Shown here: positions 38,682 through 39,413 of the stretch, piece by piece
Numbering within the stretch: the first letter of the stretch is position 1
Layout: each line of letters opens with the position of its first letter
NCBI GenBank assembly: GCA_017626365.1
Contig: JAGAIV010000021.1
Location: 6,921 to 70,920 of the forward strand
DNA from: Clostridia bacterium
GTDB lineage: Bacteria > Bacillota > Clostridia > TANB77 > CAG-508
Direction: 5' to 3'
DNA length: 64,000 bases
The notes under the pieces: generated by a model
Seen by the model: the letters and a program-made list of their open reading frames with translations, nothing else
Told to the model about the DNA's origin: nothing
Databases searched by the model: none
Made by a program: the position numbers and the translations under genes

Positions 38682-39413
38682 TTAGCACTTCTTGCAACAA
38701 TCGCATTTACAATCACATTCACGTCCCCATTTGCAACATGGTCTGCATTTTTCTTTACAATCGCATTTACAATCTTCTTTACAGTCCTTCTTACAATCGT
38801 CTTTGTGGTCTTCTTTACAATCTTTTTCCCAATCGCATTTACAGTCCTTTTTGCAATCGTCTTTGTGGTCTTCTTTACAGTCTTTTTCCCAATCGCATTT
38901 GCAGTCTTTTTTGCAATCGTCTTTGTGGTCTTCTTTACAGTCTTTTTCCCAATCGCATTTGCAGTCTTTTTTCCAATCCTCTTTCCAATCTTCTTTATGG
39001 TCACATTTACATTCTTTCTTTCCTACGAAGCAATCACATTTGTCCATTTTGACACCTTTTAGACATCTTCCTTCATGAGTACATCTAGCGCATACTTTTA
39101 CGTGTTTTACTTGGTCTACCCAGAAGTTGATTTCATATTTTTTGTCTGGACAAAGTGGTCCAAATACAAACTCTCCATCATCGTCGGTAAAGGTATGGGA
39201 AACAGGTCTTCTTTCTTCTTTACCACATTCACATACTACTTCTACTAATTTAACAACAGCATCCTTTACTGGTTCTTTATAGCAATCACGAATAACACCA
39301 TAAATAACATTTCTATCATCACATGGTAAAGTGATATCTAAGTCAAATTGTTTACCACAAGCGATATTTCCATCAATATCAACAATTGGACAACATGGTT
39401 TTTCAAAATCCAT
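38682..39413 (-). CDS. Cys/Lys/Asp-rich protein. A globular N-terminal domain is followed by three 20-aa tandem repeats (CKCDWEKDCKEDHKDDCKKD) and a Cys-rich tail.
   Basis: 60-bp DNA tandem repeats at 38760-38990. 48 Cys in 243 aa. RBS present. Confidence 0.6.
   Translation of the reverse strand: MDFEKPCCPIVDIDGNIACGKQFDLDITLPCDDRNVIYGVIRDCYKEPVKDAVVKLVEVVCECGKEERRPVSHTFTDDDGEFVFGPLCPDKKYEINFWVDQVKHVKVCARCTHEGRCLKGVKMDKCDCFVGKKECKCDHKEDWKEDWKKDCKCDWEKDCKEDHKDDCKKDCKCDWEKDCKEDHKDDCKKDCKCDWEKDCKEDHKDDCKKDCKEDCKCDCKEKCRPCCKWGRECDCKCDCCKKC

Follow-up and report, generated by a model that had tools for sequence, protein, structure and literature searches.

What does a small, Cys-, Lys- and Asp-rich protein ending in a tandem-repeat tail do for the uncultured gut bacterium that encodes it? 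The question is raised by a gene on the minus strand (38682-39413) of the 64,000-nucleotide (nt) stretch of Clostridia bacterium DNA analysed here, referred to as the window, which specifies a protein of 243 amino acids (aa). The protein is probably a structural component of the outer spore envelope (whether coat, crust or exosporium) made late by the mother cell, and judged from sequence comparison it is best classed with a structurally distinct, unannotated family of candidate Cys-rich spore-envelope proteins that gut metagenomes commonly contain. The reality of the gene, its domain anatomy, the distribution of its family, the conservation of a promoter motif and the genomic association are directly supported; sigma-K dependence, location on the spore and the chemistry of cross-linking we infer. 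A preliminary description, made from the DNA letters alone, had likened the protein to Cys-rich spore-coat and exosporium proteins. That comparison gains from a conserved sigma-K-type promoter, from sporulation genes in the window and from the spore-envelope neighbourhoods of distant relatives, but the protein is not a homologue of CdeC/CsxA or of CotY/ExsY.

The locus is a genuine, conserved gene of an uncultured gut Clostridium. Its coding sequence reads from an ATG start through 243 codons to a TAA stop in the minus-strand frame first described, and the absence of that frame from relatives, named at the outset as a possible argument against it, is contradicted by its retention in approximately 2000 homologues. 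The identical 243-aa protein is recorded on 5 metagenome contigs. Lys (46 residues), Asp (42) and Cys (40, or 16.5%) dominate its composition, the earlier figure of 48 cysteines being a miscount. Other features noted at first sight are present as described: CC at aa 7-8, CxC at aa 61-63 and 126-128, CxxC at aa 108-111, the C-terminal end CKCDCCKKC, and a ribosome-binding site (RBS) of the gene's own, AAGGAAGG (39423-39430, minus strand), 9 nt before the ATG, where AAAGGAAGGTAGATTTTT-ATG is nearly invariant in close orthologues. Inspection of the 243-aa sequence found neither a signal peptide nor a wall-anchor motif, and a secreted adhesin was rejected on this ground.

Transcription of the gene is predicted to begin at an element of sporulation type. 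Alignment of 29 orthologous upstream regions shows two conserved blocks in the 150-bp divergent intergenic region, of which the one on the gene strand reads tCAC-N16/17-CATAnnATA. In the window, the -35 AC lies within the conserved tCAC at 39486-39487 (minus strand) and is followed 17 nt downstream by the -10 CATACAATA (CATAnnnTA; 39460-39468, minus strand), giving AC-N17-CATACAATA at -74 to -47 relative to the ATG. Sigma-K promoters of Clostridioides difficile carry AC at -35 and CATA...T at -10, and sigma-E promoters carry ATA at -35 (PMC3789822). Because the element matches the AC/CATA rule and not the sigma-E ATA, it is assigned to the sigma-K type, which bears out the suggestion that a sigma-K or sigma-E promoter be sought upstream. 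The motif is held at the orthologous position though its flanks diverge, with the core kept while the three central bases of the -10 and the spacer vary. An exact AC-N16/17-CATAnnnTA was found in 41 of the 63 non-redundant upstream regions of the family. Of the control upstream regions, taken from other open reading frames (ORFs) at these loci, 6 of 309 have it (Fisher p = 5e-32), as do 0.9% of shuffled sequences; most of the remaining family regions hold one-base variants.

The second block, on the plus strand, reads as a sigma-A promoter (TTGAAA-N17-TATAAC) for a small membrane ORF and cdaA. This small ORF of about 40-44 aa (~39566-39700, plus strand) has a hydrophobic core (MSDKKKNKGQLFVKIMAAILAGLMVLATAGT), lies just upstream of cdaA and has been annotated, at 39 aa, in a second assembly. 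On the gene strand, the leader contains a short 5'-proximal hairpin, TAGCT-TAAA-GGCTA (39441-39454, minus strand), identified by folding of orthologous leaders; it begins at the same point of the leader to within 0-4 nt, just past the predicted start, in 45 of 53 distinct orthologous leaders, with a mean z of -1.6 against shuffles. Its stems vary by lineage (AGC/GCT, AGCC/GGCT, GGC/GCC, AGGC/GCCT and others), and it is likely an mRNA 5' stabiliser. The proposed bidirectional terminator is plausible: folding gives a hairpin at 38644-38676 with a 14-bp stem, A6 upstream and U8 downstream (free energy -18.9 kcal/mol, z = -5.17), which a simple terminator scan had missed, the T-run being absorbed into the stem. 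It is common to a convergent 46-aa ORF (38523-38663, plus strand) whose stop codon falls within the hairpin loop; this ORF is 67-96% identical in nearly all of 29 related loci from metagenome-assembled genomes (MAGs) and has no family match.

Further evidence comes from the relatives of the protein and the genes beside them. The preliminary description recognised no family, and this stands only in part: the roughly 2000 matching proteins form a large family in which none is informatively named, and the N-terminal domain bears a weak, sub-threshold resemblance to CarboxypepD_reg. The profile searches then recommended were carried out against Pfam and NCBIfam, returning sub-threshold matches only and no named family. 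Literature on the family was not found, including by a search combining the carboxypeptidase regulatory-like domain with spores, and cluster look-ups gave no names for its distant members. Close orthologues occur in MAGs of uncultured gut Clostridia from chicken, mouse and rabbit as well as in human-gut metagenomes. Distant members, at 35-50% identity, were reached by an exhaustive search with the N-terminal domain together with a profile search, and their tails are rich in Cys, His, Asp or Lys. Cultured endospore-formers carry some of them: Clostridium brassicae, C. cavendishii, C. fungisolvens, C. sediminicola, Tepidibacter thalassicus, Alkalithermobacter and Inediibacterium.

In all 8 distant loci examined, cultured spore-formers among them, the family gene lies within 5 kb of genes for SPOCS/SipL-domain proteins. 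Such proteins are scaffold and morphogenetic proteins of the clostridial spore envelope, exemplified by CsxA, CsxC, CdeC and SipL, with CotE as the Bacillus example (bioRxiv 10.64898/2026.09.03.749163). Matches to Pfam PF12673 were obtained in 5 of the loci, some of them on giant CLIPPER-repeat or tricorn-like proteins. A conserved neighbour of about 200 aa, without a Pfam or NCBIfam match, stands beside a GT4 gene in six loci (L030-L033, L115 and L116; e.g. L031:3170-3754) and in four is directly adjacent to the family gene and divergently transcribed from it. These neighbours are homologous across loci at 30-43% identity, and hhalign links them to SipL-domain proteins with 97.8% probability (E = 1e-12, 156 columns), from which sequence relationship they appear to be cryptic SPOCS/SipL-domain relatives. 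A GT4 glycosyltransferase is found in 7 of the 8 loci and a YutH/CotS-type kinase in one; assignment of the GT4 neighbours to CotSA or another specific family was tried, and no NCBIfam assignment was possible. Two loci hold additional family paralogues within a few kb (L115:6181-6558, L115:7858-8292 and L117:6442-6846), and one clustered paralogue has a Cys-rich N-terminus in place of the Cys-rich tail.

The part of the protein on which the family is built is an N-terminal beta-sandwich of aa ~10-100 (39114-39386, minus strand), delimited by AlphaFold2 (AF2), Pfam, Foldseek and ortholog identity. Using a 128-sequence alignment, AF2 modelled aa 31-100 with predicted local distance difference test (pLDDT) values of 82-96, and a second run on aa 1-135 predicted seven strands in the sandwich. 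A Pfam scan of the protein at E<=10 returned only PF22902 (NOMO1-like), PF13620 (CarboxypepD_reg) and PF17210; PF13620 scores 18.2 bits against a gathering cut-off of 32.3, and PF22902 likewise falls below its gathering score. Of the 128 relatives, 87 reach E<0.01 against PF13620, the strongest of them 5.8e-6. The best Foldseek matches in the PDB are transthyretin, the protocatechuate dioxygenase beta chain and the SdrD B domain, all with E>=0.01, the second model retrieves generic immunoglobulin (Ig) or macroglobulin-like sandwiches, and searches of solved structures with the protein and with the family profile give marginal beta-sandwich matches only (NOMO2, protocatechuate dioxygenase).

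The signature of the family sandwich, ..R.VI.G.V.D...P[VI].DAVVKL...P[VI][ST]HTFTD..G.F.FGPL.P..Y.I.VW, shares with CarboxypepD_reg and transthyretin-like domains the pattern G.V.D...P...A.V.L...T.TD..G.F.F..L..G.Y along with, by prediction, the seven-strand sandwich. It differs in its family-specific invariant His (HTFTD) and conserved Cys and in remaining below the Pfam gathering score, and whereas the usual carriers of CarboxypepD_reg are secreted or multidomain, here a small, cytoplasmically made protein carries a Cys-rich tail. The predicted structure suggests that aa ~10-100 adopt a divergent CarboxypepD_reg/transthyretin-like fold with a signature of its own, and the protein is at most a fringe member of that clan. 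Sandwich identity is 72-91% among close orthologues, about that of rarA and above that of cdaA and tauE from the same loci, a mark of strong purifying selection on the domain. Ahead of the sandwich, C8 is present in at least 90% of 86 gut-clade sequences; the window protein has CC there, and distant members lack the residue.

Between sandwich and tail lies a Cys/His "knuckle" of aa 101-134 (..KVCARCTHEGRCLKG..DKCDCF..; 39012-39113, minus strand), recognised by its conservation in the gut clade. In the same 86 sequences C108 and C117 never vary, and most sequences also have C111, C126 and C128. The conserved CxxC-x-H-x3-C at aa 108-117 could be a zinc knuckle. The segment is not modelled by AF2 (pLDDT <40, and likewise in the run on aa 1-135) and is absent from distant family members.

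The remainder of the protein, aa 135-243 (109 aa; 38685-39011, minus strand), is a low-complexity tail made of 27 uninterrupted tetrads of the form [C/W/H]-K-x-D, in which position 1 is Cys in 17, Trp in 5 and His in 4, position 2 is Lys in 21 and position 4 is Asp in 23. Cys makes up 24% of the tail, with many CxC, and Lys and Asp together about 50%; there are 6 Trp and no Ser, the single Ser of the protein being aa 72. Its AF2 pLDDT is below 50 and it is treated as disordered. Within it are the three perfect 20-aa repeats noticed from the start (CKCDWEKDCKEDHKDDCKKD, aa 151-210), each of five tetrads and encoded by 60-bp units at 38784-38963 (minus strand). The underlying DNA repeat is real, though its first span of 38760-38990 was slightly too wide: Tandem Repeats Finder gives 38778-38984, with 3.5 copies and 95% matches, superimposed on a degenerate 12-bp periodicity that spans 38751-38997. 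Between the three DNA copies there are 1 and 5 nucleotide differences, and in this frame every one of them is synonymous.

Variation of the repeat among relatives, which the preliminary description proposed to check, is extensive, with differing repeat units and tails of 0-157 aa (median 31) in 77 distinct complete orthologous proteins. Expanded units are lineage-specific, for example CKPE-HKPE, CEEKKECECKPCEKH, CEDK and CKKEHDCKDKCD, and the pooled composition of orthologous tails is C 20%, K 20%, D 16.5% and E 12.6%. The tail is a mere ~32 aa in the relatives that rarA places closest (94%), and the present 3 x 20-aa expansion is therefore taken to be recent. In 41 orthologous tails, Cys-Cys spacings are enriched at even lags and depleted at odd ones, with CC pairs at 0.27 times expectation, a pattern that fits an extended chain with its cysteines along one side and Lys and Asp forming a ladder along the opposite side. 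Comparison of these sequences suggests that the tail evolves fast through repeat slippage, its length free and its composition constant, with selection probably acting on bulk composition and alternating Cys and not on a fixed sequence. A separate observation concerns assembly: the MAG contigs L025, L028, L029, L015 and L026 stop within or beside the repeat tail. At this locus short-read assembly is evidently interrupted by the tandem repeat, and tail lengths in the databases are probably biased towards short.

In the mechanism proposed for a spore-envelope protein, the gene would be expressed in the mother cell late in sporulation from the sigma-K-type promoter, and its product, which has no signal peptide, would therefore be added to the forespore from the cytoplasm of the mother cell. 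The folded module of beta-sandwich and Cys/His knuckle would probably dock onto the envelope scaffold, likely onto SPOCS-domain proteins. The tail, highly charged and studded with Cys, would probably be extended, with intermolecular disulphides cross-linking neighbours and metal ions possibly bound; that Cys-rich envelope proteins are locked through cooperative disulphides is the established principle on which this proposal is modelled by analogy. Cross-linked tails would harden and insulate the spore surface, leaving it charged, hydrated and chemically robust. A bolder version, for which we can claim no more than tentative belief, is that the family is a widespread and hitherto unrecognised building block of clostridial spore surfaces in which the transthyretin-like anchor partners the SPOCS scaffold, the hypervariable Cys/charged tail forms the exposed layer and slippage quickly tunes tail length and chemistry between close gut strains. 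Such a tail could, in addition, provide a redox-triggered, "air-hardening" or metal-loaded coat when spores exit the anaerobic gut.

As regards the organism, the window itself contains spoIVB (TIGR02860, 338 bits), spoVT (TIGR02851, 258 bits) and a YkwD-family gene, and because of these the organism is considered to have sporulation machinery. The spoIVB gene is split into overlapping ORFs in different frames (5923-6303 and 6281-7156, plus strand) that cover TIGR02860 positions 8-105 and 115-399, reflecting a frameshift, a pseudogene or a mistake of assembly.

Several points weigh against a role in the spore envelope. The split of spoIVB leaves the sporulation competence of the organism uncertain, and in the window clade the gene sits between cdaA and tauE, outside any spore-envelope cluster. 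No model organism appears among the 120 best matches listed per search. Two named matches, Lutibacter sp. B2 and a Deferrimicrobium MAG, carry labels from outside the Firmicutes; both may be mis-binned. The single strict promoter motif occurs at chance level, with 10 matches in the window against 8.7 +/- 2.5 expected, so the promoter case rests on positional conservation among related sequences that are incompletely independent; of the 8 distant loci, the strict motif is found in only 1, and in 2 others it occurs with a spacer of 18 nt. None of the GT4 neighbours attains the cut-off of a curated family, and by NCBIfam they are generic. Disulphides in the spore of a gut anaerobe are, moreover, an assumption.

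Among other explanations, that of a stop-free ORF generated by the DNA tandem repeat, without function, takes its force from the repeat region being open in several frames on both strands; besides the gene, there are frames of 109, 128, 104 and 85 aa there, which are themselves stop-free by-products of the repeat DNA. For the gene this reading has next to no probability and is refuted because of the conservation data: the repeat does not extend into the N-terminal 130 aa, which about 2000 proteins conserve, RBS, promoter and terminator are conserved, and the differences between repeat copies are all synonymous. A vegetative cytoplasmic protein, for example a thiol redox or oxidant buffer, would make the sigma-K-like motif a lineage-conserved coincidence. 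The housekeeping genes that flank it in the window clade (cdaA, tauE, rarA and ruvA) would suit such a protein, as would the chance frequency of the strict motif in AT-rich DNA and the phylogenetic relatedness of the upstream regions; yet the retention of AC and the -10 core while the central -10 bases and spacer vary is what a functional element would be expected to show, the only sigma-70-like match in the leader on the gene strand is weak (9 of 12), and the spore-envelope neighbourhoods of the distant members would be left unexplained. We regard this explanation as improbable.

Two further readings start from the cysteines. In one, the tail would be a metallothionein-like store or buffer that binds Zn, Cu, Cd or Fe in thiolate clusters, in the cell or in a metal-loaded spore layer, and could thus partly overlap with an envelope role, being compatible with a spore location. 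Metallothioneins have about 20-30% Cys in CxC, CC and CxxC clusters, and the present tail, with its many CxC and interspersed Lys and His, resembles them in composition; the conserved possible zinc knuckle and the failure of AF2 to fold aa 101-243, as for segments that need metal, agree with this. The metallothionein likeness put forward in the preliminary description is nonetheless one of composition alone and is unlikely to be right. No metallothionein family was matched in Pfam or NCBIfam at E<=10, and the tail contains Trp and about half Lys and Asp, while classical metallothioneins are not known to contain aromatic residues. CC is strongly depleted in the orthologous tails, and a tail length of 0-157 aa among close orthologues is hard to square with metal clusters of defined stoichiometry; no metal-sensing regulator or metal transporter is adjacent, and the conserved promoter is of late-sporulation type and not metal-responsive. 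In the other, sandwiches would be stacked into a disulphide-linked spore appendage or fibre and stapled by Cys-bearing N- and C-terminal extensions, as in Ena, the Bacillus spore pili whose subunits use an N-terminal Cys connector. A compact beta-sandwich, the Cys-bearing N-terminal extension with its gut-clade C8 and a sporulation-type promoter would all be in keeping with a fibre subunit, which we consider very improbable given that the protein and its 128 relatives have no DUF3992/Ena or pilin match, that the predicted fold is transthyretin/Ig-like and not the Ena jellyroll, that distant members lack the N-terminal Cys and that fibre-assembly partner genes were not seen.

Two candidates were also set aside during the searches. 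NCBIfam matches to ClfA/Sdr adhesins pair the low-complexity tail with Ser-Asp repeats and are far below cut-offs, and a ribosomally synthesized and post-translationally modified peptide precursor with a Cys-rich C-terminus was rejected because the neighbourhood contains neither a radical-SAM enzyme nor any other maturase and because the tail has 109 aa.

Around the gene, 29 MAG loci keep the order cdaA, Cys-rich gene, small ORF, tauE, xre, rarA, ruvA, in which cdaA is divergent from the Cys-rich gene and the latter faces the genes that follow. The TauE/SafE-type transporter consists of two half-size ORFs (37750-38097 and 38141-38521, plus strand), an arrangement that recurs in related loci. 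Elsewhere in the window, a full-length ornate large extremophilic (OLE) RNA (Rfam RF01071, 341 bits) is located at 60989-61610 (plus strand), directly downstream of spoVT (60382-60936), and is followed by a 182-aa membrane ORF (61628-62176) with no NCBIfam match that may encode an OLE-associated protein. The intervals 901-4294, 9273-11783 and 62271-62996 (plus strand) between them encode a run of small proteins with pilin-like N-termini (MENASKAL followed by a hydrophobic stretch) and two proteins whose N-termini are of prepilin type (..GITLIALIITIIILLILAG..), including a repeat protein of 836 aa.

The spore envelopes of gut Clostridia govern host-to-host transmission, persistence in air and resistance to disinfectants, and their components are known for few model species, with wide differences between lineages. 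Against this background stand about 2000 unannotated sequences, many of them recovered from the gut metagenomes of humans, mice, chickens and rabbits. If the envelope role is correct, the gene would serve as a marker of late sporulation in uncultured commensals, and the protein would be a candidate partner of the SPOCS scaffold and a repeat-driven, rapidly evolving surface material. If the family is in addition a general building block, tail polymorphism would be a strain-level determinant of spore persistence, adhesion or host and phage recognition in uncultured gut commensals.

In comparing the protein to known systems, the metallothioneins (eukaryotic MT; bacterial SmtA/BmtA) resemble it in high Cys content, CxC motifs and interspersed Lys; it departs from them in the Trp and abundant Asp/Glu of its tail, in its depleted CC, hypervariable length and sporulation-type promoter. 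CotG, CotC and CotU of the Bacillus subtilis outer coat are alike in being modular, repeat-driven and rich in Lys or charged residues, without homology. CotC and CotU are Lys/Asp/Tyr-rich, a likeness seen in several orthologous tails, e.g. DYKPECKPDYK. CotG is an abundant coat component with short charged tandem repeats, the central ones controlling the permeability of the spore surface (PMC9765600), and its repeats are reported to be Ser/Lys/Arg-rich and phosphorylated by CotH (PMC7821199). The present tail is instead Cys-based and has no Ser for phosphorylation of the CotH type; cotH is not among the identified neighbours (cdaA, tauE, a helix-turn-helix regulator, rarA and ruvA), no search aimed at it having been made.

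CotY, CotZ and ExsY of the Bacillus crust and exosporium basal layer share with the protein their richness in Cys and, as proposed here, a late mother-cell origin; they are reported to be late mother-cell proteins forming disulphide-stabilised arrays (PMC5434927, PMC4950064, PMC8546674). Their architecture is different and lacks a tandem-repeat tail, and the Pfam scan at E<=10 found no match to the CotZ/CotY family. CsxA and CsxC of Clostridium sporogenes and CdeC of C. difficile are exosporium and parasporal-layer proteins for which self-assembly and disulphide locking have been proposed or shown. They are likewise Cys-rich, destined for the spore envelope (a role here proposed) and free of a signal peptide, and genes of their SPOCS kind adjoin the distant members of the present family. 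They have the SPOCS/DUF3794 fold, in contrast to the transthyretin/CarboxypepD_reg-like fold predicted here; no sequence similarity was detected, and a SPOCS domain (PF12673/DUF3794) was matched at E<=10 neither in the protein nor among the 128 relatives. The cysteines of the present protein are, in addition, mostly in a hypervariable low-complexity tail and not in the folded domain. By analogy, the protein is proposed to work like CdeC, CsxA or CotY while being a member of none of these families, and would apparently represent a fourth, structurally distinct Cys-rich solution to building the spore envelope, after CotY/ExsY, the SPOCS proteins (CsxA, CsxC and CdeC) and CdeM.

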